Positions 1-64,000 of a stretch of 64,000 nucleotides of DNA are shown here, piece after piece. The stretch's first letter is position 1. The number at the start of each line of letters is the position of its first letter. Under the pieces are notes generated by a model. It did no database searches. It was given only the letters and a program-made list of their open reading frames with translations, and was not told where the DNA came from. The position numbers were made by a program, and so were the translations under genes. Source of the DNA: Tubulanus polymorphus (lineage: Eukaryota > Animalia > Nemertea); NCBI RefSeq assembly GCF_964204645.1, contig NC_134027.1, forward strand, positions 21,972,560-22,036,559. The letters run 5' to 3'.

Positions 1-1315
1 GGCACTGATCGATGAATGCCAATGTTATCACAGGCCGCGCAAAATTGATTGCTGGGATCTCGTCATAGTTTTCGACTTGACGAGACCCGGGGAGCGCGAT
101 GTTCACTTTTTGTTTTCAAAAAGTTGAAATAAAAATGAAAACCTTAACCTTTAAATTTTGACGAGGGCGACGCAATAATAATTTTCTTCAGATAAAAAGG
201 ATATGCATTATTAAAGAATGAGTGTGAGGGTTTCATTAACATTTTTTGTTTCTTTATTTTTCAGTCAAACATCACAAACATTGTTTCTCATTCTTTAATA
301 TTTCGGTTTGAACCTTATTCCCTGACCGGAACAAAATTGAAAACTCTAGAAGTTTGAATCACAATGGGCGCATGAGGATTTTATTTTTGATCGATATGAT
401 TTTACGATGCTCGATGCATAGGCTATATTCAAAATTCACGTGAGATCAGTCGTGACAGGTTTCTAATAAACGGATAAGTCCTCTTTACTTTTCTATCGGA
501 TAAGAGTTAGGCCCAGGGTGCAGGATAGTTTGATGCTGCTGAAATACTGAGGACTCCTAAAAGCGTTGTCAGCAGAAACAGTCGAAGTGAGAGGCCACGT
601 AAGTTTGGCGGGCACCAGCTCGTATATTGAAATAAGCTGTTTGTTGAGCATTTCAAAGCGTGGTGTCCTCGGTCCCTAGTTAAGTAACGTTATTCCCTTC
701 AAAATCCTGATTTAACACCCCTATTCGAACAAACTATGATGTCTGGAAAATTACTGCAACCGCAACTAAGGCCAGTTGCTCGGAAGTTGGTTACTTATCC
801 GCCGGTTTATTCTGGTGTCTGTGGTTCATGGTCAATTATGGATGTTTCAGGTGAACAGGTTTGAGGTTTTTTTTTCTATAAAAAGAAGAAAAAATTCCCC
901 ACCTACCTACCCATTTTGGTGATTGCCCCGCCGAGAAACAGGATTTTTTTTGGTGTGGCCTGGGCTGTAGATTGACACCTGTAATAGTTCAGGCAAGCCT
1001 AGATAACTCATATTGATACCTTAAATTGAATAGAATTCTATTCAATCGGTGAGGTGACGTGGTTTGCGTGAGAGAGATATTTATCGAAAGTTCCCACTAC
1101 ATGTAGAAAGATATTTCGGGGAGCATTCTTTGGAAAATGGCTTTTAGTAATAAAACCAAAAATTTAAGTTCTACTTTGACTTTTTGATTATTTATCTTTT
1201 AATCTCGTCGGTGGTTCGTCATAAAACGCGTACGCATAATAGACATGTTTACGCTTATTAGCCATAGCGTGAATATTTAACTTCCACATTGAAGTTAGTA
1301 ACGTTCGCTGCAAAA

Positions 1316-20122: not shown

Positions 20123-21352
20123 ATGTTCTTCATGTTCTTCATGGATAATGTTACCACCATCAGCACTACAACTCGTAGAATATACCTCACAACTTTGAAG
20201 ACACCGGGTTATATCAAAGCCTTCAATACGATAACTTACTTCTTTTATGGATACAACAGACCATTCAAATACGTGATCTTGCTTCCATCGGGAAGTTTGT
20301 TTAACTTTCTGACAATAATTCTACTGGTTAAGTGTCGCAAATATCGGTCAGTTCGTTACACGTTCCCCTATCTCATAATTATCGCATTTTCTGACCAACT
20401 TGTCGTGTTGTTCGAGCTACAACATTTTCCATTTTATTTGAAAGACTTCGTGACATATCACCTAGGATTTAACAGCGGATGCGACGCTTCCTATTTGTCA
20501 TTCACTAAACACAGTAAACTATGTCCATCGCTTTACTATTTCTATTACTATTTCTACTATCGGGCGCGATTGTTTCCTTCTTGCATATTCTTAAATCTGC
20601 TTTATAACCAGTCACAATGTGTATCGAACTACACAGTTATAGTGATGGCTATCGAGAGATTTTTTTCCATTCGTTTTCCTTTCTTTCACATGAAACATTT
20701 CACCGTCACACGGCGTAAAATTGCAGTAGGTTTTGTCATCTTCTGGGCGTATCTTACAAACTTTGATTCTGCGATTATATTCAAAGTTTATCTTCGTAAA
20801 TCCCGCTTGCGCTACAATGAAACGTATTACTATTTTCAGTGTAAAACGTCAATCGACTTTATGAGTCTGTCCCACCTCGCAGAAATCGAAGCTACAAGAA
20901 TATTTTTACAAGATATATTTCCTGCTTTTGTTATTGTAATATTATCAGTGTCAACTGCTGCATTACGTAATGAGAAATCTGAGCTAAGAGCGACGAAACC
21001 AGATCATCATCAATCTTCAGCTAGTAAAACTCTTCTAGTCGTTGTTTTGGTGTACGTTTTACTCGTTTTCCCGTACGCTACAACTAAATGCATCAGCCAA
21101 ATGTTGATTTTCATTATAAATAAGCTTCGCCGTGATAACGGTATAAGGATCGACTACAAAAATCCTCATTTTAGGTTCTTTGTCAAGACTTTATGGTTAC
21201 GGTTAGAAAATTTCCTATTTACGTGTCGACAGTTTGTGTTCTGCGTTAACTTTTTTATATACATCGGAACATTAAAAGTTTTCAGAAGGCAATTCATTAA
21301 ATTATTTACTGGCCGTTATTTTTGTAGAATGAAATTGAAACGGAACAACTGA
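20123..21352 (+). CDS. Intronless class A GPCR, copy 5 (opposite strand, divergent)
   Basis: 409-aa ORF with GSLFN, IAFSD, MAIERFFSIRFPF, LVFP, NFFIY and VFR. Confidence 0.9.
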   Translation: MFFMFFMDNVTTISTTTRRIYLTTLKTPGYIKAFNTITYFFYGYNRPFKYVILLPSGSLFNFLTIILLVKCRKYRSVRYTFPYLIIIAFSDQLVVLFELQHFPFYLKDFVTYHLGFNSGCDASYLSFTKHSKLCPSLYYFYYYFYYRARLFPSCIFLNLLYNQSQCVSNYTVIVMAIERFFSIRFPFFHMKHFTVTRRKIAVGFVIFWAYLTNFDSAIIFKVYLRKSRLRYNETYYYFQCKTSIDFMSLSHLAEIEATRIFLQDIFPAFVIVILSVSTAALRNEKSELRATKPDHHQSSASKTLLVVVLVYVLLVFPYATTKCISQMLIFIINKLRRDNGIRIDYKNPHFRFFVKTLWLRLENFLFTCRQFVFCVNFFIYIGTLKVFRRQFIKLFTGRYFCRMKLKRNN

Positions 21353-21901: not shown

Positions 21902-22309
21902 TATCAACCCTGTGAGCTTGGAGGACACTGACACTGAAGAATGCCCTTAATGCGTTAACAGTATCGCCACCTGGTGTGTAGAATGTCGACAATCCCAAAA
22001 TAATAACGAAAAGATTATTATTCTATAATTTCGGCGGCGAATACGTAGTTTGATAGTTTTTGGAGTTTAGTAAGGCGAGATATTATAGCACGATCTCTCG
22101 ATCATAAACGTGTTTACTAAATTCTATTCAGGTATTTCTGGGTCCCCTGCGTTGTACGACATTAGAAGAGTAAATTTATTTTTCATCGGGTAATTAGTTG
22201 TCGAAATAAAATAAAATTGAATTTAAACATTCCTCACTCAGAGCGCCGCCTTGCGGGCAACAGAACAGATTTTCACGGTCACCGTTTAACACAGCCATCA
22301 ATAACGGTC

Positions 22310-25300
22310 ATGGCGTCGGCGGCGGACGCTAATGCGGCAGCTTCGAGTCGGCACGAAAAAAGTCTCGGTTTACTCACTACGAAGTTTGTATCGTTATTAC
22401 AAGAGGCACAAGATGGAGTTCTCGATCTGAAGAAGGTGCGAAATAGTTTTTTAGAAACCTTCTCAACGTCGAAAAGTTAACAACGAAACGAGAATTAATT
22501 TTCTTATGTTGTTGAACAGAAAATTCAATTCAATAAAGAAATGTTCTTCAATAAAATTAGTCCATTCTCGCAATTTGTGTAATGTTGAAACCATCCACAA
22601 ATCAATCCAATGCGCATGCACGAATGCGCTGGACTTAGAAAATTCTAAGAAAGATCCACGAAAATTGGGATTCGAACACGCAAGCACTAGTCTAGAGTGC
22701 AAGCCTAACGTTCCCCCCCCCCCCCCGCAGCGCTATGGCGGTTGCTTCGTGCAGTCGTAACTTTTTAACTACTCATAGCCTCATCCTAACCCTACAATGT
22801 TATAATATGTAACGGAACCTAACCCTAACCCTAACCCTAATCCTTTCCGTAGCCCTAACCCTAACCCTCTTGACCTTAAACCCTACTGTCTGTCACACAT
22901 GCTCTTCGTGCGACGTTTTGGTCCGTAATTCCGTTAATAATCGGTTGATCTGTAAATATTATGCATCAATTTGTTCAGTAAGGAATTTGCATTCAGAAAT
23001 AAATCATGAACTGGCAGAAATTTGTTTGTGTTTTCTTCTATCAGCGATAGTTTACCTAGCATACGCTCGCGTAATGCCGAAAAACGGCTTTTATGGCCCG
23101 TCACTTGGCGCCACCTACAGTATTTTGATATGCTAATGAGCAGGTGATGACGTCACTGTAACGTTTCCGAGCGTCCGCGGAGCGGATTTTTCAGCATTAC
23201 GCGAGCGTATGCTGAGTAAACTATCGCTCATAAATGAAAACAAAAACAACTTAAGTGAAAATTGTTGTTTATTTCTGAATGCAAATTCCTCGCTGAACAA
23301 ATTGATGCATAATAAAGGTAGAAAAACCGATTATTAACGAAATTACGCACCAAAACGTCGCACGGAGAGTAGGTGTGACAGACAGTAGACCCTACCCCTT
23401 CTGCGATTCAAAAAGCCGCCATTTTGTCTCTTTTCAATATCACTTCCGTTTTGTGGATGGTTTCAACATTACCTAAATTGCTTCATTCTCGATTTTTCCT
23501 TTGCCCCTGGGGGCAAGCACATCTGAAATTTCGCTTGCAGTAAAAGTGCAGATCCGCACCTCTCGTAAATGGTTCAATATATTACATTAATTTAAAGAAA
23601 ACTTGTTTCAGAGTCCAAATGTCAGCAATTCAGTACATACAGTGGTTTATTTGATGATATTTTCACTAGAAAGTAGATTTTTGGTGAGATTTTTATCTCG
23701 GAATCGGGATGGTTTGTCAAAAGGACGCCATATTATTGGATTGGTAAATCTAAAGTGAAGATTTGCCTAAAGTATTTGCTGAAACGATGTGAGGGTAATC
23801 AGTGCATAAAACTAATCACTTTTTTGTCAACTGTCACTGGGTTATTAATTCTGCCAAATTGTCTAATATGTTCGTTGAAATAGATAAGAAATTTCTATTT
23901 TTCTTTCAGCAAATATTCTAAACAAATCTTCACTTCAGATTTACCCATCCAATATGGTGTCTGGTTCAAAAATCGTGACGATCTCAAGACAAAATCCAGG
24001 CTAAAAATCTACTTTCTAGTGAAGATATCATCAAATAAACCACTGTACTGAATTGCTTTTGACATTTCAACTCTGAAACAGTGTTATTTAATCTAATTTA
24101 TTGAACCATTTACGAGAGGTGCGGACCTGCACTTTTACCTCGCTTACCCCTCGAAAAATCAACTTGCCCTGCACAGCCAGTCTGATTGTGGGCACAATCA
24201 TCCGTTGTAACTTGTATTGTATCAAGTAGGAAAAAGCTTTTGCCTGACGACAGACTGGACATAAAATTACGAGTGCGTTAGCTCCGGTTACGGAGTATGG
24301 TAAGCGCATCATGCGCAATACAGTAGAATTCTGACTTGCAATATTGTGATTCAAAACCAAACGAAAAAATATAGTTGAGTGCTTTACCCACTGAGCCACA
24401 GCACACAACTGGAAGCTAGATGAGTTATAGCCTCACCTAACCCTAACCCTAGATTCTTCTTTCACGCATGCGCGTACGTAGATTATACTGCAGATTCTTG
24501 TAAAATTACACCAGCCCAGTGGGCAAGTGATAATGATAACTTAATTGCTCTAATGAAAATATAATTGTCTTAAAAGGCAATCGAACAAGCACTTATATCG
24601 CACCCTGTCTTACGTAGTTCTATTTCATACGACTGATCTTAAACGTCGTATGGCCAATTAGCGATGAGTATTGCGTCAAATTACTTTTATTACACTCGGC
24701 GATGATTGAGACAGAGTCTGAAAGAGCACTGTAGGTCGACTATGACTCATTCATCGCCTAAAAGTCATCTGACGCGATACCCATTGCTAATCATTTTCAC
24801 CCGTCAAGGGATTCGAACCCACTAAGCTAAAGCCGTCCCCGAACCCCTTGACCTCACAAGTCATTGGAGTCGTTACTAGCCAACCAGAATCAGGTTGTAC
24901 CTATCACAGCGCTTGTCACAAACAACATTACGCTTCTGTTGGTTTTCTTGTTAAATAAATCAATCAGCGAACGTATTACCAAACAAGTGACGTCATGCGC
25001 AACAGCGCCAGTAATGAAATCACGCGTCGTCGTGAGGCCAGGGGGTTGTTGGAAGGTCGAGTACCGGGATCGATACCGGACCCCTGGCAAGCGAGGATGG
25101 TTGCTAATTGGCTACGACGTTAAGATCAGTTGTATGAAATATAGCTTATTCTATCCATAAGACTCGGCTTAGGACCAGTCTGCGATCAATCCGTCGTGAT
25201 CGTAAGTACACTCGTGTCGAAAAAGATTCCCGATTAAAAGAACCGCAGATAGTTGACTGCACTTAGGATCTTACGATCTGATCGGATCTTAATTGATCTG

Positions 25301-28300
25301 ATTGAGGCTTTAGTCCACGTTTCAGACGGTTCTTTTTCTAATTGTTTGTTAATCGATTCGTTTTGTTGATTCCGTTTTCAGGCAGCAGACACGTTAGCGG
25401 TTCGACAGAAACGTCGAATTTACGATATTACCAATGTTCTCGAAGGAATCGGTTTGATCGAGAAAAAATCTAAAAACAGCATACAATGGAAGTACGTATT
25501 CGATAAATCAACCCTGATTCATTATTCGCTAAGGTCTGATTTTGCCACTATCCCAGTCTACCGAGGATAGTAAAAGCAATTGAGGATAGCTGTTGACTTA
25601 TAAGTGAAGTGTTTTGGCGGGATAGTGTAATGTAATCGATACTGAGATGGCCATGACCCAACTCCTTTGTACATAACAACCAGTGTTAATAAACTATTCT
25701 CAAGGAAAGGAAACATTGCGGACTTTATATTTTTTCATGTGGGTGGGTTCATTTTTAATCAGTCGAGACTAAGGTACGTCAATGTTTTCCCGGCCTCCGA
25801 GTGTTTTCCATTGATCTAATAAAGTGTTGACGTATAAGTGAAGTATTTTGGCGGGATAGTGTAATGTAATCGATACTGAGATGGCCATGACCCAACTCCT
25901 TAGTACACAACAACCTGTGTTAATAAACTATTCTCAAGGTAAGGAAACATTGCGGACTTTATATTTTTTCATGTGGGTGGGTTCATTTTTAATCAGTCGA
26001 GACTAAGGTACGTCAATGTTTTCCAGGCCTCTGAGTGTTTTCCATTGATCTAATAAATGTTTTATTAAGTAAATGAATTCTAATGCACACGTATGATGTT
26101 GTAATAGTTGCGCGTGTAACATTTCCGCTTATTATTTTCTGTTGAATTAAAACCAAACGGAACTAAATGTTTCGCGAAACCCCCACACGCTACTGCCCTG
26201 TTTAAGTCGTGTTAACGTGTTCGATCTATTCGCAGAGGAGCCGGGCCCGGTTGCAATACGACGGAAATAGCGAACAGATTGGTCGAGTTACAAGAGGAAA
26301 TCAGTCAACTTGAAGCGAAAGAGAAACTGCTCGATCTTCACAAAGATTGGGTTCAACAGAGCATCAAGAACGTTCAAGACGAAGTCGGCAACAGCGAGTA
26401 TCCTTTTAACGTTAAAAACAAGCTGATTAGACTTCTTGACTTGTGATTATTCCCGAAAACAGAAACTGCTTTTAAACAAAGGCGCTTCAGGGTCCCTACA
26501 ACTCCTTGATTCCTTGAAAACTCTTTCTAAACCAAAAATATTTTTCAAGGTATAAATATCCTTGAATTTGAGCAAAATGCCCTCGGAAGTCCTTGGAAAC
26601 TCCTTGAATTTTGAGAAATTGGCAATTTTTTGGCTCGAGGCCTAGTTATTATATACAAAAATGGTTTACTGAGTAAAACAGTACTGATTTAGGAGGTGTC
26701 AACAGTAGTTGTGATATGAAAGTGATACAAACACTCCTCGAAATTTGAAATTTTCTCCTTGAAAAGTCTTTGAATTCTGGAATGACTGGTTTGTAGGATC
26801 TTGCTGCGCTTGGAACTCCTTCGATTTGAGCAAAATGTCCAAAACTCTTTCGACAATTTTAAGGACTAGGCAACTAGAAATGTTTGTATTTGTGATCAGG
26901 ATATTTTCTTCACCTAATTTAGGCAGAGTGTAAAGATTCTGGCGGTGCTCTGGGTCCCTGTGATTCCTTGATCCGATGAAAATTCCTTCAAAATGATAAA
27001 TGCTTTTAAAGGTGCCTGAAGCGCCTTTTATTTGAACAAAATGCCCGAGACTCCTCAATTTTGAGAATGGGGCAATTAGAAATCTTTGTCTGGTTTGAAG
27101 TTGTACTGTGGATACCCCTTAATCGGTACGTTCAGTTGGGCCCAGGGCCCCAGTTTCACAAAAAAGTGTAACCGAAGTTTTTGGCCCAGGATTTGTTTTT
27201 AACCAATTAGTCAGTTACCGAATCAGAAACCGAGTTTAGGTATTATAAAGAATAATCTTAAAGAATAACTGATATGATTGTACCAAGATGAGCAGTACAA
27301 ATTTTTTCAGGAATCTACAGTAGTTTTGATATGAAAGTGATGCAGATGCCTACTTAACGATGAAAACCGACAATTACTTCTATAAAATCAGTTTATTGCC
27401 TTACAGTTTCCCTCATCATCAGAGGAACAAAAATACTATAATGATTTATTGTATTTTTTGTTTCTCTGATGATGAGGTTTATTTTGAACCTTGAAACTGT
27501 AAGGCAATAAACTGTTTTTACAGAAGTAACTGTCGGTTATATTTGTTAACTCTACACTGAGACTTACATCAGTTCACTGCAGTCAGACGACGCTTGCTTG
27601 ATTGAAATATGAAATTTGCCTTTTAACTCGATGTATTCAGATTAGCGTACGTGACTCATGAAGATATTTGTGAATGTTTCGACGGGGATACGTTACTGGC
27701 TATACAAGCGCCGTCCGGTACGCAGCTGGAAGTACCGATACCGGAAACAGTGGTACGTTCTCATTGCTGCGGTTACATTTCGAAATGCATGAAATAAAAG
27801 TGCAGACTATTGTATCGACGAGAATGGAGGTGGTGGTCGAAAAACTGATTTAATTTATGTAGTAAAGAATGTATTAAGCACCACATCCTCGCTTGCCAGG
27901 GACACTCCCAGAACTTCCACCAGCCCCCGGACCTCACAATGGGCGATTTCAATACTTGCCCTTTTGCGCATGACTACTTCCTTGTTCGGTAAAATGTTCG
28001 CTGATTGGTCCATTTAACAAGAAAACCAAGCGTAATGTTATTTGTGACAAGCGCTGTGATTGGCCCGACCTGATTCTGGTCGGCTAGTAACGACTCCAAC
28101 AACTTGTGAGAGGTCAAGCTGTTCGGGGAACAGCTTTAGCGTAGCGGGTTGGAATCCCCCTTCATGGTGAAGATGTAAACACCATGGAAAGAAGCCTCCC
28201 CATCGAACCCTTCACATTTTAGGCGTTTTGCCTTATCGACCTAGTGAAATCGCACGACAAATAATTTGTGGCTGTGAAGAGCAGTGAATTCTTAAGTAAT

Positions 28301-31300
28301 TATGCTAACCTTCAAGGCTATACACAATTTATCACCTTCATATCATCTAAACTCGTCACACTTCACTTTCCACATCATTTGATCAGCTATTAGTCAGGTT
28401 TCATTAGCTGTTCCTTCTTCTCATAGTCAGTCTATGGGGTCTGGCTTATAAGTATATTATAAACAACTGTGCTATCTTTTGTCTAAAGTTATTAACCCTT
28501 TCAGTGCTGAATAATCAATACCCCTATTATAGTGCTGTTAGATAATTTGAAAATTTTGAAAAATTCCACCCTAGTGTGTTGAATAACAGGAATACCACTA
28601 TAGTGCGTCTACACTACGCTGCGGTGTATCGTTAGTGACTAGTATTTCACTATGTTTGACAGGTGCTACCATCTTTTGATGGAGATGAAAATAATCACTA
28701 ATTACATCAAATACACCGCAGTGCAGTGTACTAGCAAATCTATCACCGATTCATACACCGCACTGAAAGGGTTAAGTGCTAACCGTGTTTGGTGACCTAC
28801 GTTCATTTTGTTCTAGCATTGTAACAAAAAAGTTCGACTTAAAAATTGTATTCTACGTTTTGATTTTCAGGGAATGGGTCAGAAGAAAAAATATCAGATA
28901 CACTTAAAAAGTCACTCGGGTCAAATCTATGTGTTATTAGTCAACAAGGACAACGACAGTAGCAATCCGATGGTCGTGCAGGTGCCGCCACCTGATGGTT
29001 TAAACGTGCAACAAAACGTCAAATCCGAACAGAATTCCTCATTCAACGTGTCCTCTCCGAAGGTTTGTCAACATCTGTTTGAATTATCTATTCAGTGGTC
29101 AGATTGATGTAAAAAAAAGTGGAAAAATTGATCTCTACTGTAACAAGAAAACTAACGTTGAAGATTTCTTGACGTCTTGTAACAGGTGTATTCCGTAATG
29201 TCAACAATGAGTAAAATGATATCATATTTTGGCGAGGATCGATGAATTCGGTTTGAATATATCGATCATTGAATTGAATTGACTGGCAACCAGTCCAGCC
29301 CGGATATATCGATGACGTAGTGCACATCCTCTCAAATAATATTATTAAAATTTATCAAAATTAGAATGGAGAGTTATGAAATTTATTCAATTGCAAAATA
29401 AACCCGAAAATTCTTATTTTGAAACGCCAATATTGATGACATCGACTGTATAACGCATACGAGGTATCAATCAATGTGTATAGACATTATTGTAACGGTT
29501 TTAACTACGTCAAAAAAAATGTGAACATTTTGGTAAATCTGTGCAAAAATCACGAAAATATGTGAAAACAATGTCTGTGTATCAGAATATTTTGATTCAT
29601 TTAAAAGCCACAGGCCTATACCACCCCAAAATTAATGAACAAGCTGTGTTAAAGTTAAATTACTTCTAATCTATCCACATTGTGATAAGTAACCGTAATC
29701 TTGGTTTGAAAAATCATGTGAATGTTCAAAATCCTGGTATTTTGTTGTGACAAAAGCCATGAATTGTAAGGATGTGAAACTTCCTGAGAGTTCATCAATC
29801 TGACTCCTGTTTATTTGTTTTATGAACGTTAACGAAATGTCGTGTTGAAACTTGTTTTTCGTTTGAAATTTCAGACTCGTAGCAGCGCGAAATCGTCGTC
29901 TGTCGTAGATGCGGCGCCACCTGCCACGCGAATGACGACTCGGTCATCACCTCGGCGACAAGATCCGGCCGCTAGTTACCAAGGTGATTTTCCCTTTTTT
30001 GTAAATGTGTCTGCGAAAATAACTGGTAGGCCACTTACCTAGAAATGAGGGTAAAGCCGGGAATTTTGTAAAATAGCTCGGTATCAGGGGGAAAGTCGGG
30101 TAAATTTGATGAGATTTTTAGTTTGCGCATAAAATCGAATAGTTTCTGTCTATGTCTTGCATGTTCGACTGTTAGTTGGTTGAACTCTTAGCAAATCTGT
30201 CGGGGAAAACAACGCGCTTGTCAGAAAATAGTCAGAGGAAAAGGGAAAATGACTACCCTGGATAATATGTAATGACTAATTATGTAAATGACCAATGGGG
30301 TACCGTTTCCACTGTGGCAAGTGAGCATCCGCCAGGTTTGCCATACTGAAGAAAAACAAACAGTATATAAAGCCAAAAAAATTATACCCTGTTTCTAGTC
30401 GTCGGTTAAGCCAAGCTCAGGTCGACTTACGACCGGACTAGATTGTCGTTTGAGAACGGCGGTAGTACACACGTGACTGCTCATTGCCGATTCATTTGTC
30501 TCACACGATCATCACCGAGTCTAAAAGTCATGTGACGCAAAACAGGTCGCTAATTGGCTACGACGATCTGATCGGGTCGCAGAAGATAGAACGATTTGTT
30601 CTATCCTTGAGAATTCGACTTACGATCCGTCTGCAATCTCAATCAGTCGCAGTCGTAAGTACATTCACGTCGAAAATTTTCCCGATTGAAAAATAGCAGA
30701 CTCGCCTCCTTCAGATCCGACGATCTGATCGGGTCGTTAGTTGAATTGAGCTTTACTTTAAACCGATCCGGATTAAGGGCGTTTCCCTGGAAATCACGGA
30801 ATTTCGTCTTAAAAAGAACTTATAAGAAAAAGGGTCGAGGTGGTTAAATTGCGCGTATAATTCAATAGTTCCCGCCTATGTTTCAAGTATTAGACTGACT
30901 ATTGTAAATTGTTATGATTCTTGGCATATGGTGTCAGGGAAAACGACGAACATGTCAGGGAATAGTCGGCAAAAACCGAATCAAATGAAAGTGGCCACTG
31001 GGTTTTTGATAGCGGGTTTGACTGAGTCTAGTATCGGTTGATAAATTGATCAGTGAATGAAATTCATCGACTTTGATTGGCAATATTTCCAACGGGTCTA
31101 AAATGCGCGCGTTCGTTATTATTGCAGTTGAGAATAAAGCACCGGTTGCTGTAGATCCGTTGAAAGATATATCGCCGATGGACACCGATTTCGATCCGAC
31201 TAAAGATCCGCTGTCCGGCGAATTGATCGATGAATTGATGTCGTCAGAAAGTAAGTTCAACCTTTCACCCTGTATTCAAGCAGAGGTCAGCGTGGGTGAA

Positions 31301-39060: not shown

Positions 39061-40017
39061 TTATTTGCTTACTTGAGTCCAGTCGAATACGTAGTCGAAC
39101 TGATAGTTCAACGTGCGAAACAAAATTCGGAACAACTGCCGCAGGTACATGTAGTCGGGCGCCTCCTCGAAACGAAGACCCTTGCAGTAATTCAAATACA
39201 TCGAGAACTCGGCCGGGAAACCCTTGCACAAAACCTCCACCGGCGTCGACATCTTCTTTTCGCTGATGCGCTCGTATTTTTGCTTTTTCGTTGCTGCCTT
39301 CAAGCCCTGCCACGGCAGATTGCTGCGGTTGAAGTACATCAACACGTAGCCGAGCGACTCCATGTCGTCGCGGCGGCTCTGCTCGATGCCGAGGTGCGCG
39401 TTGATGCTCGCGTAGCGCGCCGTGCCTGTCAGATTTTTATCCTCGCGATACGGTATGTGCTGCTTCGACCGGCTGTCGCGGTACTTTTTCGCGAGGCCGA
39501 AATCGATGAGGTAAAGTTTGTTGCAGTGCCGCCCGATGCCCATCAGAAAGTTATCGGGCTTGATGTCGCGGTGGATAAAGTTTTTCGTGTGCACGTACTC
39601 GATGCGTCCGATCATCTGATCGGCGAGCATTAGAACGGTTTTCATGTTGAATTTACGATGGCAGAAATTGAACAGATCTTCCAAACTCGGCCCGAGAAGG
39701 TCCATCACTAGCACGTTGTAGTCGCCTTGCTCGGCGCCAAAGAACTTCATATGCGGTATACCGACGCCCCCTTGCAGGATTTTGTAGAGTTTACTCTCGT
39801 ACAGTAATTGAGGGTGTCGCGCTTTCGTCGATTCCAATTTCACGGCGACCTCTTCGCCGTTGACCGTATTCACGCCCAGGTAAATATCGCCGAACGAACC
39901 GCTGCCGATTTTTCGAGTCAGACGATATTTCGATTTTTCGCCGACGATAAATTCGTTACGGCCGGACTTGCGGTCGGCGCCGCCGGCCATCGCCGACTTC
40001 TTTGTATATTCACTCAT
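39061..40017 (-). CDS. CSNK1A1: Casein kinase I alpha
   Basis: [41 protein letters not shown] (alpha-type), [37 protein letters not shown] 5'-UTR splice acceptor lies near 40258. The ORF end (CAA|GTAAGC) may be a splice donor. Confidence 0.96.
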
Positions 40018-43835: not shown

Positions 43836-46800
43836 ATGGATTGGATACCTCGAGTTCCGCGAAAAAATTCGCTGATTTTACCTGAAATAAAAAATCCATT
43901 CACGCACAGATTAAAACTGAGTTGGTGCGATTGGATTAAGGTAAGAAGATAGACTTCCAAAGACACTTAATTGAGTCTGTGGTGTCGGTAGCATCCTAGC
44001 CATTTTGCTCACTGTAAGTGTATAGGTATATAGCCTATATGCTGCGCTGGTGAGCAAGTGCAATCTTGATTTTTTATTCCAATTTTATGCCAAAAAAGAA
44101 GTAAATTTTGTCAATTTAACTTGAAAAAGTTTTTCACCAAACCTCATCATGAAAGCCTGTTTATATGGAACTAAATTCATGCACTATTTTAAACTTATGA
44201 TCTGACTTCGGGCCAAGACACAATTATTTCACCGCTAACAACAGAATGAGTAGTAGTTACAATTTGATGCCCTGGAAGGAAGGGTTCGGCTATGAAAAGG
44301 GGTCTCTATGAGTCGGCGTTGGTTTCTGCTTACAGATAGGGCAGGGATTCAAACCTAATGGTGTCGAGACTCGCCACGGTACGAAACCCTGCTACACTAG
44401 ACCGAGTGCCCAGCTACACGCATAGCTTAGATTATGTCATTATTAGTCAATCAGATATCCCGTTTTATTTTAGCCCAGGTTTTCCCGTTTATAGTTCTTC
44501 GGTGAAATTTACCTCAGCGATTATACAAGTAATCTGATTGGTGCCGCAAGTTTTCGCGCAGCTGCGCATGTACCTGGGCACCTGGTCTAGTGTGGCAGGG
44601 GTTCATGCCGTGGCTGGGTGTAACGATGGCATCTGATTCGAATCCCTGCCATGGAAGGATGGCTCTCTACGCTTGGTGAGGTTTAGTTGAGCCCACCTTA
44701 CCGTTAAGTAGGCGCCTATGGTGGTTAGTTTAACTAGGGTTAAGATTTAAGCGACATTTTTAAACCCAATTGGAAATTTCACTATTTAGGCCAGTTGTAA
44801 TGTAGGTGACACGCAATAGCAATATTGGACATGTTAGGTATTTCAAAGGATTAGTTAAAAGTTACAGGTTAGGTCATGTTCGGTGACTATATTCGGCTTA
44901 AAGTTAATTGACTAGCCTGTTGTTTTATTCAGTGGTATTTTTGTGTTGTCGGTGTTGTCAAGTCCTGTGACGAAATTTATGTCTGGTCATAAGGCACTGT
45001 AAACTCGGAGATGATTAGGTGTGTCAAATTGGCCCGAATCAAACTCGAATCAAATTTGGCCGGTGCTTAATCGAGAGAGCGCGTTCACGTGTAAACCACT
45101 CACTCGATACTAAACAATGCCGTGACTCACTTCTAACACCAGGATGTGTAGTCACAAGCAATAATTAAACCTCTACGCCCGGCTTGTGACATTTTTGGTC
45201 CTGTCAAATAGGCACGACAGGTTCGCTCACTTGGCAACTTAGTGAGCGGTTGGTCGCATCTAAAAACGCTTGCTTCTTTAGATCTAACCTGGCATTACTT
45301 ACCCTTGCACAGGCTAGGCCTATGCGTTTCCAATCATAGTCTGTCTTCTATCAAATATCTACGACATACCCCCTGATTCTATTAAAAAAGCTATAGGTAC
45401 TATTGGATTTTATTCAATTTAATGTAGCCAAGCTTAAATACTTCTGGTCAGAGTTTATGAAGCCAAAGCAAAGAGATACATTGAAGTATAATCATAATGA
45501 TTTATTTTCATTTCACTAAATTACGAAACAGGGTTATTTTCACGATTCGGAATAACTAGAAGACTTGTTAGATGAAGGGATCCAGTGCAAGCCTTTCAGG
45601 GCTGTACTCGCAAACACTCGCAAGGCACCTGACATATAAACGGTGTACATCTGACGCGGAAGTTGGTAGGCCAATGCCCAATGCGCAGTGGGGTCCATTG
45701 GGGAAGACAGTTTTGCTGCCCGATATCAAATGAGTAATCTATGAATGAGAGACTGGCATCTGGCTTCTAATGTGTGCTATTAGAGCTGGAATGAGTCATC
45801 ATATGTTCGAAATTTTGTGTCTATTCAACTAAATTCACACTGGTAAAAGGTCGAAATTGATGACTTAAAGACCCGCGGGATCGGCCGACTCCGAACGCCG
45901 TTCCCCCCGGGTCTGAAAGGCAGTTAGCCATTAGAGCCTTGCTCGCTCTAAAATCTCTAGACAAACTTATTTCGTATTGATGGGTTTCGATGTTTAGTTC
46001 GCGTGCCAACAGAAACAAGAAACGTAACTGGTCTTATTGAATCAAACCAACACAGGCCAGGGTCCCGGACAACTCCTTGATTCTGGTAGAATGGCACAAC
46101 GCTTTTAAAAGTGCTTGAAACTCCTTTACTTCAGAACTCTTTCAAATGTGAGAAAGGCAATTAGAATAGACATTTATGTCTGGTTTTGAGACCTAGTTGT
46201 CCATGCCTAAAATCCGGGTACAGTTGGGACCTGGATTCATGTTTACCCCAATAAGGCGGTTACTGAAACCGTATTTAATTAGTAAAGATCATAATACAAA
46301 TTTGCTTATGAAACCCCCGAACTCCCGTCTACTAACAACGAGTCTGCAGTAATTAGGATACATGAAAGTGATGCAGATGACTTCCTGGCAATAAGAAATT
46401 CTCCGCAATGATATACTGTAGTAGGTACCCCGCTACATCACCACTAGCGATGGGAAAAGTAGTTTCATCGTAATCATATGCCGTCATTATTTACCGTCAA
46501 AGAAGGCCATAGGCCTATGATGTACAGACAGCCACTTTTGTGCCTGATATGATATCGAAAATGGCTGTGATTTTGATAGTCGCGTCGAATTGCCGTGCAC
46601 GATAGCCGATGATCTAAACATCGAAACGCGTCGTTTTAAAAACAAAATTACCCTCCTCGTTGCAAGGTTTTCCTGCTAGGTGACTGGTCGCTATGTTTGT
46701 TCAGAAATTTTGACTCAATAATACTAACTATAGCAATGTGGATTGACGCCCAATGGTAGATGAAATTCAGTATATTTGGCTTTTTTGTGCAAAGGCACTT

Positions 46801-55800: not shown

Positions 55801-58800
55801 AAAAACTTTACTAATTATTAAGTACTAATTACATCAATACACAGCGATGCAGTGTATAAGTAGTCCATGCTTGATTAATACACCGCACTGCGGTGTAGAT
55901 GCACTGAAAATAATTCATGCCGGGTGGCAGCAAAAAACTTTTACGAGTGTGTGGCCGATTTTCTGAGGGACGAATGTAAACCGGGGTGGCCATCCCTTTT
56001 TAAACAACCCTAGTTGAGTACAAAAGAATGTATTATATATTCGTACGTCGTTTTTGTATTTTCAGATAGCGATAATGACAGTGACTATATTCCCGTTGAG
56101 GTGTATGTTGATAATATTAATCGTGATAGCCGCGTGGCCGATCGGGTTCGTGTGTTTATACGGCGTAACCGAGGACGAGAACAGTAAACCGTTCGTCGGA
56201 TGGAGACGGTAAGATTTCCAATCTTCGAACTTTCGTCATTGCGGGGGATACGGGGGCCAGTCGCTCAGGATGAATATATGTTGACGGTGCGGTTTTAATT
56301 TTTCGACTAGCAACTGGTTAACTGTAACTAACTTTCGAGCGACTGGTTCCTGGTCTATTTATTATGCCCCCAGTTTGCCACTTTTTCCTGTTTTGCCCCT
56401 TTCGAGTATATTAAGAGTAAAAAACGGTTTGATTGTAGTTTGCCCCGCCGCGTTTCAACTAAAACACCTGCTGGGGCCGGTTGCATAGTCATGGCTTAGT
56501 CTTAAGACCAGTCTATAGCCAATCTAACAACTTAAGACCAGTCTTAAGATTTAAAGCCTAGCGCACATCGACACAGCGATTGGAGACAACTAGTTGCTAC
56601 CGAACGATTACCCCGCGCACATCGAAATCTAGTTACGGCCGGTCAGTTGCAGCAACTGCATGGCACGTGTCGATCGTCGAGATCCAGAGCGCGCACATCG
56701 ACGGATATGACTGCGATTGAGTACAACCAGTTGCTCAAAATTAGAACATGGGCAACTGGCTGGAACTGGAGATAGATCGACGCTTACCAATCGTAAGCTC
56801 GCTCACATCGACACATTCAAGCAACTGATCGTATCCAGCCAGTTGCTCTCGTGCGCCGAAAACTGCCTTGCAACTAGTTGTCTCCAATCGCAGTGTCGAT
56901 GTGCGCTAGGCTTAAGACCACTTTTGGACTTAAGTCACGACTGTGCAACTGGCCCCTGGTGCTAGTTCCATAGTCATGGCTTAGACATAAGACAAATTTA
57001 AGGCCATATTAGTTCTATTAGCTATTTTAACAACTTAAGAGTTAAGACCATTTTTGGACGAAAGTCTCGACTATGGTACCAGCCCCTGTGTTTTTTTGCC
57101 TATTTTGGATTTCGAGTGAAATGTAAGAAATTAAGTAGATTTATGGAGAAGGCCAACTGCGAGCGAACCTGCGTCGAATCTTCCAGAATCAGATGAGGAT
57201 GCGTCCATTTTGAGGTCACCAACAAGGGGCCAAGAGTCGTAAGACCATCTTGGTTTTTCAGGGAAGGGAATCAAACAACTTAAAACGGTCTTATGTTTGA
57301 AATTCATCTATGGATTTAACTCGTCAGTCCGGACTTGACTGCAACTTCTACTTGGGAGAAGCTGCTAAGAGCTCAATTGCTAATATGAAATATCAAGATA
57401 CACTTCCTAAAATCAGAATAATTTCCTGTTGATTTTCAACCGCTTCGTTTGATGTCAAATTACTCTCATTTTTTTAGGGGTAACTACTACAAATAGCGAT
57501 ATCAGGTAGTCAGTCCGGACCTGGCCCTGGAATGATAAGTGGCTATAGTAAAGCGGGTTTATGCCTTCTGAGTTGTTTTCTGGTTCACCGACTGAATGAG
57601 TCTCATGTTCTTAAATTAGCTCAATTCATAATCTTAAACTCTTTGCACAACGAATGTGTTATTAGCGCAGGGCTAATGCATTCGTTTAATACTCGTTTAA
57701 TACACAGCTCGCCTGTGGTGATAGTTATAGACAGGGTTTTAGTACATGAGCGATTAGCGATCAGGGTCAGGGACAATAATCATTAATGAATCGTGGCGGC
57801 GAATCAGAGTCATCGGTGAATCAGAGAATGATATTCATTCCTGCTATACTCAATATTGACACTACCGGTATGTGTGTATATATAATGAGGCTACTCGCTG
57901 AATGTGTTTACATCATCTGGGAGTTGATTCATTCTCGGTGTTCGTGTACTACTATCATCGGAGTGGACGAGTTTGTTACATCTACTCCTCAAAAACCTGT
58001 CGAGCCCAATGCGCATTACGCAGGGAAGCACACAAACATGGAATCCAATATGTTTCATCTCCTCGGAAACGTTTTTTTCTGGTTTCTCGTGAATGCGCAC
58101 AACGCCGGAAAATGCTCGTAAACATCGGATTCTGTTTCCTGTTTTTTGTGTTTGTCTGCAACATGTGCTTTTTTGGGCGAGTAATAATCTCGTGGTTTTG
58201 TAAAGCGTTCACTCCATTAGCAATAGATAGTAGATTCTGGGTAACATTTTCTCCGCGTGCATGAGGAAAGCGTATTTCATCGGTCTTCGTTGCCATCTTC
58301 ATTGCGTGCAAAGAAAATATTACCGAAAATCTAACGGTTCCTAACAAATAGTTTTGAGAAGTCGGCGTTCCTGTTCTCTTTGTAGTTCTACAGTCATCAT
58401 ACGGTTGTGGGGGTACGGGATATTCGGGGTTCTGCATCATATACCAGGATTGTAAAGGGGGCTTGTACAGAGTCGCGTATCCCTATAAAACTTCTTGTGA
58501 AGGGCAGTGCCCTAATACCGTGTTAGGACTGGCCAAATTTATTTGTGCTGTCTTCTGAACGGACAGTAGAGCCTAGCTTTTTGGAAAGGGAATGGCGCTT
58601 TCTTAATGGAAAACTGCGTAACCTTTTTTTTGTAAGGATGGTACGAAAAGAGCTGCACGATGTCTACAGCCCTCAGGAAATTATGAGAATAACAGTAATG
58701 ATGATAGTAAATCGAGCAATTCATAAAGCGCCTTCTACATCATATTACACGCCCGAAGCGCTTCTTCCTCAGGGAACGACTTGCGAAACAGCCGTCTTTT

Positions 58801-61800
58801 TAAATTGATCAATGCTGTTAGAAGATCTTATGTCGTTTGGTAAATTGGTTCACGATCCAAAATATGGACGTATCAAGGGGCATTCTGAGTGTATCTATAT
58901 GAAGTATCGTTTGGTTGGCAAAATTAGGGGGTGGCTATCTGCTGCCCCTACAAGAGTGGATATCAATATTCTATCAATGCTGATGATTGCTTTGAAATAG
59001 TCCTATATTGAAATGCATTGTATAGCTTATGCGACAAGTAGCCTGAGATACTCCATCCGAGTGTGTTGAACAACGGGAATACCACTATAGTGCGTCTACA
59101 CTGCGGTGCGGTGTATCGTTAGTTACTAGTATTTCACTATGTTTGACCCGTGCTGCCATTTTTCAAGAGAGATAATTACTAATTACATCAATACACCCCA
59201 GTGCGGTGTACTAGCAAAATCTATCACTGACTTATACACCGCACTGCGGTGTAGACGCACTTAAAGGGTTAATCCTTAACGCGCCTCAGTTTTTTTTTCT
59301 ATGTTCGTCGTACGAGTACGAATTCTTCTCTTTCTCGATCGGAACCGCCGTTTTCCGATTTTTGTTTTTTTTTCTCATCATGTTTTCTCTTCGCAGCGTT
59401 CTACGCCGATGCATCGAGATACTGTGGCGCAGCATGTTCTTCGTCGGCGGCTTCCACTGGATCACCGTCAAAGGGCAGCGGGCGAGCGCGCGACAGGCGC
59501 CGATCCTGGCCCTGGCGCCGCACTCTTCATTCCTCGACACGATGTTACCGGGCACCGTTCTGCAAGCTACGTCGCCCGTAGCGAAAGCCGCAGCCGCCGA
59601 TATATTTTTATTTGGACGTACGAACTAATTATCAGTCTTCGTTCGATTCGTTTTTAGCCCACTTGGGACTTTTGCGTTCACTTTTCGTCCGTCGTCCGTC
59701 CGTAGACGGAATCCAGTTATTTTGGGAAGTTTTGAAGACGCTTCAAGGTAATGTCTTGATATTTGGTTTATACATGTATCTACCCTAGACACATCTGCAG
59801 CCCAAAAACTGGCCCTGTCAGAATCAAGATGGTCGACTGGCAGCCATTGTTGTTCGCCACTTTTTACACATTTTCGAAGTTTACGAGGGAAATTTTGAAG
59901 ATGCATTGATCAATTACCTTGGTCTTGCGATTATATTTGAACCTACCAAGGGCCCATCAGCAAAAGAAAAATTGGTTCCATATGACTCAAGATGGCCGTC
60001 CTATGACCTTTTTAGTGCCCAAAAATGTCAATTTTGGCCAAAATTCTAGGTCCTGCAGCTTCCTACTGGTTTGCCATTTCTCATTGCAATTTGTGATGGG
60101 TATTCTTTGTAAAGGGATGTTTTTATCTGAGACCGGTATTTTTGATCCGCCAAATATGACGCAATTGGCGGCCATCTTGGTGTCATTAGTACTCATTCGT
60201 AGGTGGGAAAAAGTTTTCCGACATTATATTGATACCTAAGCATATTTTGTTACAGCAATGAATTAGAAAGTTATAGCATATAACGTGTTCTATGATTGGG
60301 GTGAGTTTCAAGTTCATTGTTTTTTGTATATGGCCACCAGGGGGTGTTGAATAATACAATATCTTAGTATTTCTATATTATATTCGTACCAATACATATT
60401 TTGTTACCGCAATCAATTGCAAAGTTGTGGCTCATGACATCATCTATGATTGTGGTGAGTTTTAAGGAAATTAGTTATTCTATATGGTCACCAGGGGGCG
60501 TTGAATAGTAGAATAACCTGGTATTTCCTTATTATATTGGTACCTAGGCATATTATGTTACCATGATCAATTGCAAAGTTGTAGTTCGTGACATGTTCTA
60601 TGAATATGGTGAGTAACAAGGTTATTGGGTTTTGAATATCGTCACCAGGGGGCATTGAATAGTAGAATAACTTAGTATTTCCATATTAAATTGGTAACGA
60701 GGCATTTTTTGTTATCACAATCAATTACAAAATCGTAGCTGCTGACATGTTTTATGATTGTATTGAGTTTCAAAGTCATTGGTATTTGTATATGGTCACC
60801 AGAGGGCGTCGAATATTGAAATTGTTAGATTGTTGAGCATTTGAAACCACTTCCCAAGTGGGCATGTGTCCCTGGACCCCTAGTTTGTTTTTGTTTTATT
60901 AGAGTACATATGTATGTATGCGCATGTGTGTTGGAGTGTGAATGAAATCAGTTCCAGAATATAGAACGATAACCGCACTCAAACGTGGTGAACGGATAAT
61001 AAGATAAAAACCCACTATCTACAGATTAAAAGAATTTAAAATCAAGAATTTATTTATTCGATCTAAAATATATAGAATACACGACGTTTCGATCTCACCC
61101 TAGACATCGTCGTCAGGTGCGTCACGCCTGACGATGATCTCTAGGGTGAGACCAAAACGTTTCGGCTGTTCACTAACAGTCATCATCAGGTGGAATGACC
61201 AAAAAAAACAATCTGGTCACGTTTTTCTGGTCATTCCACCTGATGATGGCTGTTAGTCAACAGCCGAAACGTGGTTTCATAATAATAAATTTGATCGTAT
61301 AATTTTTTAAATTCTAATTGTGGGATTTCTTCATTTAACCAGTGGATAGTTGACATAGTGATAATTAAAAGTTCATTGTTACTACGGTTGTATCTATACA
61401 CTGGTTATCTGTAACTGACTTTTGAGCTACTGGCCCCAGCAGGCGTATACTCGTAACATCCATATTTCGTTATAAAATCTGTTCTCAGTTTCGAACCATT
61501 TCGTTTCTTCCGTCAGCGAGAATCGCGTGCTGCGAGGGTTTAAAATCGAATTGAAGATCACTTTCAATTTTCACGCGATTTTTGCGTAGATTATTCATAT
61601 TATTATATCACGGGATTGTGGTTAAGAAAAAAATATGTTTGCATTGTTCATTTATGTTTTTAGTACCGGGTATTGATCACGTTTAAAGAATAACAATATC
61701 AGAAGCTATAGTTTATTATTAGTGATAGGGTGTGGTTGGCTTCTACTGGAGATGTATATGTACATATGTACGTGCGCCATGTTAAAAGGCTATGACCACT

Positions 61801-63606
61801 CTAGAGATTCCGGGCCTAGGAAATTACCGTGCACTTATAAATCTTATGTGCCACAATGGGGAACCGGCAACACCGGCTATCCCGCCAGATGGCGTAACGA
61901 GCGCCTGGTCTTATGTAGTGAAATAGATACATTTTCGATGAACTTTGACCTGAATTTTTTTACTCCAGAATCAATATCGCTATATCACAGGACCTTCCAA
62001 GTACAAATTCAGATATCTGAATAGTTTCCATAATATTAGATCTATTTAAGGGAGTTTAAGTTCATTCAGTTTTCATGGAAATGTAGAAGAAATCGAACGC
62101 AGAAGACAGAGTTACTAAAACTAGTGGACCTGCTGGATCCTCGCTTGCCACAGGAGGTCGCAGGTTAACCATTGCTCGAATGTACATAGCCATGTTCGCG
62201 TAATTCTGCGCTTAGTAAACCCGCTTTAGTTCTTCATTCAGTGAACATGAACATGCAAATTCTTGTCAAATCACGTGTCGTTTAAATTAAAAGTACTTTT
62301 GCGATTCTAATTGCGGGTCAATCAACAGCTGTGGTGAATGAACGACGTAAAATTGGGACGTAACACAACGGCGAATTTCGATTGAATAGATTAGAATTAA
62401 GTTCTATCGGGTGACCTCATTAAAGTTCTGTTGACCTTAAACAGCTATCGGGAAAAACTTGATAATAATATATCTAGATTATCTTTTACAGATTGTCCTA
62501 GGCCTATATATTAGCTGCGTTCACACTAGGTGAACTAGTAGTTCCGTACTGATATACACGGCTTATAAGCGCGGAATGCGATTCCACGCCCAAAAGCCGA
62601 TCTCAGTACGGCACTGAGCTGGCCACGTATTTTCTGTAGTGTGAACGCAGATTCGGCGCTTAGCTAGCCACGTATTCACATCCTCGTAGTACAAAACACT
62701 GAACACTAATTACACTCCCCTCTATTGGCACACTGGGTGACTACTATACTGGGCTTACTAAGTGCCGAATTGCTGACTCGTAGTGTGAATGTAACTGGCT
62801 GTATAAGTGCCGTATTTTGGTGAATTCGGCACCAGCGAAGTACAGGACTTCGTAAGCGCCGAATCTAGTGCGAACGCGGCTATTGAAATCGATAACGCGC
62901 ATATCTTTATTTACATTCATTTCAGAAAGACGTGCACTTCAATATTCGTTCTGACCCTTATCTATGTTCATCGAACTGATCATGCATTTGTTGAAAATTA
63001 TTTCTTTAGACCTAGCTGCCAACTGTTCTCGTTACTATTTCGTGATAAGAAGTACCGATTTTATTTGTTTGATGCTTTATTTGTTTGATGCACCGTATAC
63101 AGAAATATGAATGATGTCACCGAGGGTCTTACTGTTGATTACTGATCTAATGAGAACATTTTCTTTCATATTTCGATGAAATGTTACTGATAAGAATTCA
63201 ATTCGTTACTGATAGCATTTTTCAGAGGTCAGAAGCCCGGTTTCGTTAATCAGTTCCCAAGGCAATAATAGCTGAGTGGGAGTAGCATTGAAAGGGTTAA
63301 TTCCGTTTCGAACGCTAAAAACTGGCGTAGATACGAATGAATTTTATTGTAACTAATCGTACGACGTTTTTAATGATTTTTATAGGACTCTGATACGATT
63401 CTCGTTTAAACACGTCGGCCGAGCGGTGCTGTTTTTGTGCGGTTTTTATCGGATAAAGACGCGCGGTCGTCTGGCGACCAGCGCCGAAGCGCCGATCCTC
63501 TGCGTCGCGCCGCATTCGTCGTTCGTCAACGCGTTCGCGTATCTCGCCTGCGGATTGCCGACGGGTATATCGCGCGTCGAAAATCGCGACCTACCGATAC
63601 TAGGAA
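43836..63606 (+). CDS. LPCAT: Lysophosphatidylcholine acyltransferase LPCAT1/2-like, 5' part (continues beyond the window)
   Basis: Exon 1 43836-43940 (MDWIPRVPRKNSLILPEIKNPFTHRLKLSWCDWIK). Exon 2 56066-56208 (IAIMTVTIFPLR...AAWP...PFVGWRR). Alternative exon 3A 59397-59617 and 3B 63386-63606 (APIL..APHSSF.D/N). Phases 0, 2, 1 are consistent. Confidence 0.92.
47855..48030 (-). mobile_element. L2/CR1-type LINE 3' fragment (a second copy lies at ~49690-49810)
   Basis: SKSNFGDSAFFVSAPKHWKTFP resembles the GxRAFSxxAPxLWNxLP tail of L2/CR1 ORF2. The sequence recurs near 49.7 kb. Confidence 0.65.
56555..56912. mobile_element. PIF/Harbinger-type MITE nested in another MITE (~56473-56957)
   Basis: TIR AGCCTAGCGCACATCGACAC...TTGGAGACAACTAGTTGC with its reverse complement at the right end; TAA on both sides. 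Confidence 0.85.
59397..59617 (+). CDS. LPCAT: LPCAT exon 3A (221 nt; canonical motif PHSSFLD)
   Basis: Pyrimidine tract + CGCAG acceptor and GTACGA donor. Encodes VLRRCIEILWRSMFFVGGFHWITVKGQRASARQAPILALAPHSSFLDTML...ADIFLFG. Confidence 0.92.
59654..60884. mobile_element. Non-autonomous Helentron-type element (HINE/DINE-like) with a central 154-bp tandem array
   Basis: Starts in a T-run. Sub-terminal inverted repeats GCCCACTTGGGA (59657-59668) and TCCCAAGTGGGC (60852-60863). (CGTC)-type microsatellite near 59685-59703, about four 154-bp units at ~60220-60815, and a CTAG/T-rich end. Confidence 0.8.
61079..61120 (-). ncRNA. Minimal hammerhead ribozyme motif (Penelope-like element type)
   Basis: The minus strand reads GCAC-CUGACGA-cGAUgUC(loop)GAgAUC-GAAAC-GUC-GUGU: intact core, helix I GCAC/GUGU, helix II with one mismatch, palindromic ACGU in place of helix III. 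Confidence 0.65.
62513..62881. mobile_element. Harbinger-like MITE
   Basis: TIRs AGCTGCGTTCACACTAG / CTAGTGCGAACGCGGCT with a 3-bp ATT on both sides. Confidence 0.7.
63386..63606 (+). CDS. LPCAT: LPCAT exon 3B (221 nt; variant motif PHSSFVN)
   Basis: TTTTTATAG acceptor and GTATGA donor. Encodes TLIRFSFKHVGRAVLFLCGFYRIKTRGRLATSAEAPILCVAPHSSFVNAFAY...SRVENRDLPILG. Confidence 0.9.
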
Positions 63607-64000
63607 GTATGATTTAATACTACTGATCTTTGCTTGTAGCCGTCTTACGCATTTTGGTGACGGTTCTAACTTCGGTGACGTTGTCCCGGCCCAGTTTCAT
63701 GGACATGGCCAGTTCTTCGATGTTTTTTTTTTTCACGAAACAGTATTTGAAATTTTGGAATCAATTCGTTATTTTCTGAAGCGGTAATAAAATCTGTCCT
63801 ATTAAACTGGGGCCCTAGGTATGTTCTTTAGGTCCAGGTTCGAGATTAGGAAATGGGTCATACAATCGTAAAGTTGTTGTGAAAGTTGCCAGTGCAGTAG
63901 ATTCCCGAAGCAGGGCATGCAGCAAGGAATGAACACGAAACCTGTAAGTGTTTATGGGTTTCGCTACTTCACTTTGCCCGCTATGGCACACTGATTAAAA

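Follow-up and report, generated by a model that had tools for sequence, protein, structure and literature searches.

The 64,000-nt stretch of the Tubulanus polymorphus genome analysed here (contig NC_134027.1, positions 21,972,560 to 22,036,559; hereafter the window) contains one gene of the LPCAT1/2 family of lysophospholipid acyltransferases, in which exon 3 occurs as two tandem copies, 3A and 3B, that are incompatible in frame. The two copies are likely to be spliced on an either/or basis, to be ancient and to exchange the acyl pocket of the enzyme rather than its catalytic pair. The elements of the gene found in the window are located as follows.

43836..43940, + strand: coding part of exon 1, 35 aa from the ATG to the donor site
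56066..56208, + strand: exon 2, 143 nt, encoding the first membrane helix, in phase 2 at its end and present in one copy in the window
59397..59617, + strand: exon 3A, type A (LPCAT1-like), found in the sole annotated protein of the gene
59425..59427, + strand: Trp93 in 3A, putative counterpart of mouse LPCAT2 Ala115 (acyl-pocket floor), mapped by offset via a crocodilian LPCAT2
59521..59538, + strand: motif I HSSFLD (HX4D) in 3A, read from the exon translation
63386..63606, + strand: exon 3B, type B (LPCAT2-like), with frame and splice sites intact and without a matching protein or transcript record
63417..63419, + strand: Gly in 3B at the putative Ala115-equivalent position
63513..63530, + strand: motif I HSSFVN (HX4N) in 3B, with the Asn codon AAC at 63528-63530

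Both copies of exon 3 measure 221 nt, have AG..GT borders and one open frame each, and carry PHSSFLD in the case of 3A and PHSSFVN in the case of 3B. Exon 2 reads in frame into either of them taken singly. As 221 is not a multiple of three, inclusion of both or of neither breaks the frame, and a join of exon 2 with 3A and 3B meets a TGA two codons into 3B; only messenger RNAs (mRNAs) with a single exon 3 can therefore encode the full enzyme. When three full-length LPCAT proteins were used as tblastn queries against the window, exons 1 and 2 were each found once and exon 3 twice. No exon 4 was detected in the 64 kb by this search, and neither a second exon 1 or 2 nor an exon 4 occurs between 3A and 3B. 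A preliminary description of the locus had reported two homologous 221-nt exons after a single exon 2, a frameshift upon double inclusion, and neither a second exon 2 nor an exon 4 between the copies; all of this is borne out, including the coordinates, splice sites, open frames and motifs. The 3A and 3B peptides align with a global score of 79, compared with a mean of -32 and a maximum of 14 for shuffled sequences (n=1000), and share 6 of 73 residues without gaps or 22 with gaps. Since the alignment needs offsetting gaps and a length of 72 aa prevails among type-A segments, the equal length of the two copies is a coincidence.

The translation of exons 1, 2 and 3A corresponds to residues 1-156 of XP_074646514.1 (P0001), the RefSeq LPCAT2-like protein of T. 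polymorphus, which is the single member of its sequence cluster. Because this protein joins 3A to a downstream exon 4, the latter must lie past 3B. In T. polymorphus, use of 3A is thus annotated (XP_074646514.1) while 3B is known from genomic sequence alone: a query with 3B alone found no match, and the 3B isoform was absent from homologue searches of the protein collection although it was expected to rank top there. XP_074646514.1 matches PF01553 (67 bits, cut-off 23) followed by several EF-hand families. An AlphaFold2 model of the 3A isoform (predicted local distance difference test, pLDDT, of 77) has PlsC (5KYM) as its best Foldseek match (E 7.8e-6; template modelling score, TM, of 0.68 on target), and a sequence search of the PDB gave 0 matches. 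The PF01553 and EF-hand architecture, the PlsC-like fold and the HX4D motif of 3A place the gene in the LPCAT1/2 subfamily of AGPAT, 3B being the part that lacks HX4D. Lysophospholipid acyltransferase activity of the gene product is predicted from this family membership and fold. LPCAT1 and LPCAT2/LPCAT4 are members of the AGPAT family that take part in the Lands cycle and in platelet-activating factor (PAF) production. Exon 3A has oddities of its own, namely a Phe for the Pro of PxxG, the loss of the Glu after Lys and a one-residue insertion that it has in common with the X2 isoform of Lineus.

The adjacency of the copies, their phases and splice sites, the frame break upon double inclusion and the isoforms annotated in relatives are all those of mutually exclusive tandem exons. 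As for the way in which exclusivity is enforced, the simplest reading, given the frame incompatibility, would be that double-inclusion mRNAs are removed by nonsense-mediated decay. Steric exclusion is ruled out by the 3768-nt intron between 3A and 3B. No sign of docking/selector RNA pairing was found, 0/7 pairs of flank regions scoring above the best of 15 shuffles, and the inverted repeats present in the flanks are transposon-like. Around both exons, the introns are occupied by high-copy repeats that bear terminal inverted repeats (56450-56990, 59030-59270, 59700-61330 and 62600-63230).

The same arrangement is found in public annotation well outside T. polymorphus. In 11 other spiralian species (Lineus, Lingula, Owenia, Gigantopelta, Patella, Littorina, Biomphalaria, Saccostrea, Mya and two Octopus), the two proteins of an annotated pair agree throughout, save for a single block spanning exon 3. 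Exon choice is annotated in molluscs, a brachiopod, an annelid and another nemertean. Such pairs made up 7 of 17 same-species pairs in one batch and 3 of 11 in a second, to which Littorina adds one; the remaining pairs differ elsewhere, are alleles or belong to separate genes, and in Pomacea and Crassostrea virginica the exon-3 swap is accompanied by C-terminal differences. The earlier proposal that splicing swaps an active-site module holds in so far as an either/or swap of the motif-I exon is annotated in these many relatives; the Asp-versus-Asn difference as the purpose of the swap does not hold, as discussed below.

Phylogenetic analyses of exon 3 indicate that the two types are old. Under LG+C20, all spiralian pairs (11/11) are split across one starred branch (98/93), and the same applies under LG+G4 (12/12; 99/98). 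The first tree kept 36 of 60 rows, 24 having been dropped as unnamed, long-branch or redundant; the second had 41 rows, with the wasp second copy taken out and 6 rows added. P0133, labelled LPCAT2, is an LPCAT1 by cluster and was excluded from trees and counts. Both trees are unrooted, the sampling having no named cnidarian or sponge outgroup. Exon 3A clusters with Lineus X2 (99/95), and a single clade made of 3A and 3B is rejected by the approximately unbiased (AU) test (p-AU 0.008). Together, the pairs in 11 species and the split of the exon tree indicate that the exon duplication is old. A wasp gene model also has two tandem exon-3 copies, the first of which is type A.

Several points weigh against an ancient either/or exon pair. 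The isoforms of the relatives are gene-model annotations whose junction reads were unseen, and no RNA run was found for T. polymorphus itself. The exon-3 alignment has 73 columns and its bootstraps had not settled, and the protein rows are redundant, with many vertebrate LPCAT1. The branch of the A group has no star in the 60-row tree (96/78), where the insect second copies and Fasciola fall between the types. Finally, the second exon-3 copy of the wasp is left untyped by profile (-0.2 bits), which makes any insect orthologue of B a putative one.

Two further gene arrangements were noted in the same collection. Babylonia areolata (P0004 and P0073/P0243) has a pair of diverged LPCAT genes, each on a contig of its own. 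The annotated proteins are type A for one gene and, in both isoforms, type B for the other, so that isoforms may have separated independently in a snail lineage. In Anopheles atroparvus, P0057 (884 aa) is a gene model resembling two fused tandem LPCAT genes, of which the first exon 3 is weakly B-like (-1.5 bits) and the second A-like.

What the choice of exon 3 changes in the protein was approached through the AlphaFold2 model of the 3A isoform, where residues 84-156 comprise most of helix 81-99, two strands, the loop and helix of motif I, and the strand-helix preceding a kink. Encoded in exon 3 are, besides motif I, the second membrane helix and the PxxG kink, at which the exon ends. The core of motif II (mouse L186/V187/R189, or His+40..43) is encoded by the constant exon 4; the preliminary description was right in assigning motif I to the duplicated exon, and the region around motif II that it also assigned there does not include the core of that motif. 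In mouse LPCAT2, H146A, D151A and G176A each abolish activity (Hamano 2021; PMC12315963), and Ala115, which modelling places on the acyl-pocket floor, tunes donor choice: A115L lowers the use of 16:0 and A115W that of 20:4 (PMC12315963). LPCAT1 favours saturated donors (review PMC4280512).

The equivalent of Ala115 is the residue preceding the conserved Arg of exon 3, and was located by its offset from the catalytic His in a crocodilian LPCAT2, with PxxG, Arg and Leu-Val-x-Arg keeping the register. Here 3A carries Trp and 3B carries Gly. Across the exons compared, Gly occupies the site in 9/14 B exons and 0/14 A exons, and the A residue is the larger one in 12 of 14 pairs (pairs that are not independent of phylogeny). 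Among deuterostomes, the site holds Met in 78/79 LPCAT1 and Gly in all LPCAT2 and hagfish rows (16/16) and all amphioxus rows (7/7). Against a role for this residue, it should be said that the mapping was by offset, from neither the mouse sequence nor coordinates, that Leu is found in 3/14 B exons and Cys or Ser in most mollusc A exons, so that the size contrast is not clean, and that LPCAT4 has Cys at the site (6/6). The pocket-floor residue is nevertheless a better candidate switch than Asp versus Asn, and we infer that exon choice may tune acyl-chain preference. Because A has the larger residue and B mostly Gly at a position where bulky substitutions alter the acyl-CoA choice of mouse LPCAT2, type A is predicted, with confidence slightly better than even, to use long polyunsaturated donors, 20:4-CoA for example, less readily than type B does.

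The distinction between A and B also runs through the vertebrate paralogues. In the exon-3 trees under both models, type A takes in vertebrate LPCAT1, and LPCAT2, LPCAT4, hagfish and amphioxus lie with type B, a correspondence that the preliminary description had missed. The part of the protein downstream of exon 3 unites the 10 vertebrate rows in a single clade (100/99, starred), to which amphioxus is sister (91/85). Exon 3 thus splits LPCAT1 from LPCAT2 while the downstream protein unites the vertebrates, which suggests isoform separation after gene duplication; two marks of that process are seen, namely paralogues in different exon lineages (with a borderline AU result) and a remainder of the gene that groups the paralogues. 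A single chordate clade of exon 3 is rejected (p-AU 0.013). Profiles that drew on other spiralians alone (10 A and 10 B exons), and were thus free of vertebrate sequences, assigned 80/80 named LPCAT1 to type A and 16 of 22 LPCAT2/4/hagfish rows to type B. An early vertebrate gene duplication, in which LPCAT1 would have kept A and LPCAT2/4 would have kept B, is the probable origin of this pattern, and the A/B arrangement is likely to be older than the protostome-chordate split.

Alternatively, the A/B pair may be restricted to spiralians or protostomes, and its resemblance to vertebrate LPCAT1/LPCAT2 may be due to convergence or poor signal. The observations pointing this way, several of which also count against a shared origin, are that a single vertebrate clade of exon 3 is borderline under LG+C20 (p-AU 0.0498) and not rejected under LG+G4 (p-AU 0.085), a tree in which jawed-vertebrate LPCAT2/4 lie near the A|B boundary; that six polypterid LPCAT4 rows score as type A by ca. 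5 bits; and that no deuterostome, and hence no chordate, with both exons was seen among the fetched proteins, the amphioxus records being all type B. Tandem duplications of exons are also reported to have arisen convergently in fly and human (PMC9741552). Such a restriction is at odds with the starred A|B branch that has LPCAT1 inside A under two models, with the rejected chordate clade and with the placement of every LPCAT1 in A by profiles that contained no vertebrate. Moreover, amphioxus is clearly B (-36 bits), so that LPCAT1 would need to have converged on A from a B-like ancestor. We regard a restricted origin as unlikely, though not negligible.

Exon 3B departs from the whole family at motif I. 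The motif-I Asp was present in all 243 motif matches, from the 241 homologues that have the segment (250 fetched, 9 without it), and Asn in 0; two further hits of the regular expression were spurious C-terminal matches and were excluded. Asp is invariant in the 20/20 spiralian A and B exons, and the B exon of the other nemertean (Lineus) has Asp, not Asn. Since all other homologues with the segment keep Asp, the HX4N form is, as far as these sequences tell, not the conserved switch. The preliminary description had taken Asp versus Asn as the point of the swap; this is not supported, given that type-B exons of all other sampled species keep Asp and that the equivalent change, D109N, abolishes human AGPAT1 (review PMC4280512). 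As D-to-A likewise abolishes mouse LPCAT1/2 (PMC12315963), recent damage to 3B is more likely than tuning. The codon AAC is one G>A step away from GAC, in a CpG context. An origin of the Asn by CpG decay was considered and rejected, the CpG observed/expected ratio of 1.1-1.2 giving no sign of methylation-driven decay. This ratio extends across the window with no depletion even in gene bodies, a hint of little CpG methylation.

We lean towards reading the Asn of 3B as a recent private substitution that would leave the B isoform dead or very weak. Apart from this residue, 3B is well preserved, which speaks against a long decay: it retains 14/16 family-conserved columns, the second change being Val to Ile, its GC content at third codon positions (GC3) is coding-like (0.66, versus 0.38 for intron GC), and its B-profile score of 74 bits is at the low end of the leave-one-out range (74-102). 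For a neutral exon of its size, a first disabling hit is expected by ca. 1.8% divergence (95% bound 5.4%), the haplotypes being ca. 1.1% apart by rough estimate; if 3B is dead, its death is therefore recent.

The same features could belong to a maintained and expressed pseudo- or weak enzyme, with splicing toggling between an active and a catalytically muted Ca2+-binding isoform in this lineage only; a weakened or regulatory form was among the options of the preliminary description. The intact frame, splice sites, GC3, conserved columns and B score agree with such a role, as do the lack of another allele in the DNA run described below and the synonymous nature of the one variant in a second sample (depth 3.9, possible error). 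On the other side, the Asn occurs in no other homologue, among them the B exon of the second nemertean, Lineus, the 3B protein is missing from the collection in which it was expected on top, and a recent mutation predicts an equally intact exon (1.8% expected versus ca. 1.1% between haplotypes), so that maintained and recently broken copies look the same. A regulatory role of this kind has little weight in our assessment, and loss by recent substitution is preferred. Of the earlier view that the exons are old, maintained duplicates, the age stands on the spiralian pairs and exon trees, while for 3B maintenance and recent breakage are inseparable by the data.

Short-read contigs support the assembled sequence at both exons. 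Contigs of one DNA run, possibly the source run of the assembly itself, match 59263-59698 and 63161-64000 with 0 differences, and the depth at both exons (31-36) is that of single-copy sequence. These contigs carry AAC and not GAC, a possibility that had been raised for this site, which excludes a base-call error, although the run is not independent if it was the assembly source. No second allele at 3B is present in this run, and the single variant of the second sample is the synonymous one mentioned above. That 3B might belong to a second LPCAT gene copy, as part of it or as its remnant, or might reflect an error of assembly or base calling, is highly improbable: the gene does extend beyond the window, leaving exon 4 and any further copies outside the view, but the interval between the copies has neither another exon 1 or 2 nor an exon 4, both exons are at single-copy depth without differences in the contigs, XP_074646514.1 links 3A to an exon 4 beyond 3B, and 11 species share the swap. 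The suggestion of a separate gene copy made with the first description is by the same evidence largely refuted.

The depth-3.9 contig of the second sample stops at 63529, a single base beyond the Asn codon's first letter. A mixed site would cut it there, but chance may have done so as well, and as a hint of polymorphism this is weak and post hoc. Unique-sequence contigs of run X1 differ by ca. 1% from the window at 55900-58982 and by 0 over ca. 2.9 kb around 3A and 3B (59263-64000), which is possibly a homozygous or low-diversity tract. In the three DNA runs, contigs span introns and no exon joints are visible.

Taken together, these data are consistent with a history in four steps. Exon 3 would have been duplicated in tandem before the protostome-chordate split; either/or splicing of A or B would then change the acyl-chain pocket; an early vertebrate gene duplication would have left A in LPCAT1 and B in LPCAT2/4; and 3B of T. 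polymorphus would recently have gained its Asn, rendering the B isoform dead or very weak. Extended further, and this is a tentative step with the balance somewhat against it, the difference between human LPCAT1 (saturated, surfactant phosphatidylcholine) and LPCAT2 (inflammatory PAF, arachidonoyl) might have begun as a splice switch setting pocket depth in the bilaterian ancestor, later frozen into two vertebrate genes, with the ribbon-worm B form now an HX4N pseudo-enzyme. LPCAT1 and LPCAT2 are drug targets with differing donor preference, for which no solved structure was found (0 matches in the PDB sequence search, and only PlsC by Foldseek). If exon 3 is an ancient specificity cassette, isoform pairs that are identical elsewhere would be natural single-exon chimeras isolating its effect, and the vertebrate partition, if true, would be a pre-vertebrate case of splice-isoform separation invisible to human-centred surveys. 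In the Asn copy, nature would have provided either a test of the motif-I charge relay or a view of an ancient switch in the course of losing one of its arms.

Other features of the window lie upstream of the duplicated exon. A cluster of receptor-like single-ORF genes (ORF, open reading frame) is found at 1319-2494(-), 4182-5186(-), 5623-6744(-), 15921-17043(-) and 20120-21349(+); the last has a 7tm_1 match, 1319-2494(-) and 5623-6744(-) are close paralogues, and 15921-17043(-) is split across two frames. A near-intact LINE-type element occurs at 9091-13272(-), with a 911-aa endonuclease/reverse-transcriptase ORF and an upstream ORF with CCHC knuckles. At 39064-40011(-) lies a long uninterrupted kinase ORF (Pkinase match), which we take to be casein kinase 1-like. 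The ORF at 7862-8380(+) resembles a starch-binding (CBM20-like) module, and exons at about 22300-31300(+) are, judging from their translations, presumably those of an E2F4/5-like gene.

Mutually exclusive homologous exons arising from tandem duplication are a known class (Lam et al. 2021, PMC7954323; Martinez-Gomez et al. 2022, PMC9741552), for which nine events touching catalytic residues have already been listed (PMC7954323). The LPCAT pair resembles them in being same-phase, either/or, ancient and near a functional site; it differs in that LPCAT is unnamed in the main text or searched supplements of both papers, whose full gene lists may lie elsewhere. No paper on an LPCAT with mutually exclusive exons was found within a scope that excluded subscription journals and Drosophila databases of such exons, and literature searches gave no relevant paper on an HX4N acyltransferase. 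Isoform separation after gene duplication has been described for CALU, PGM1/PGM5, U2AF1, MARVELD3 and the FYN family (Abascal et al. 2015, PMC4494069), and a term search of that paper did not return LPCAT among its cases. As there, each LPCAT paralogue would keep one ancestral exon and the diagnosis comes from comparing exon tree and gene tree. Unlike the LPCAT case, its 11 cases start from human genes with both exons; no sampled vertebrate LPCAT has both, so that the event would be visible from invertebrates only. With vertebrate LPCAT1 and LPCAT2/LPCAT4 the T. polymorphus gene shares PF01553 and EF-hands, the PlsC fold and motifs I-IV, and it differs from them in offering two exon-3 options within one gene, in the Asn for the motif-I Asp of 3B and in the Phe for the PxxG Pro of 3A. 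The kind of arrangement is therefore known and its isoforms are already in public annotation as X1/X2 records, while the motif-I Asn and the pocket residue are new here.

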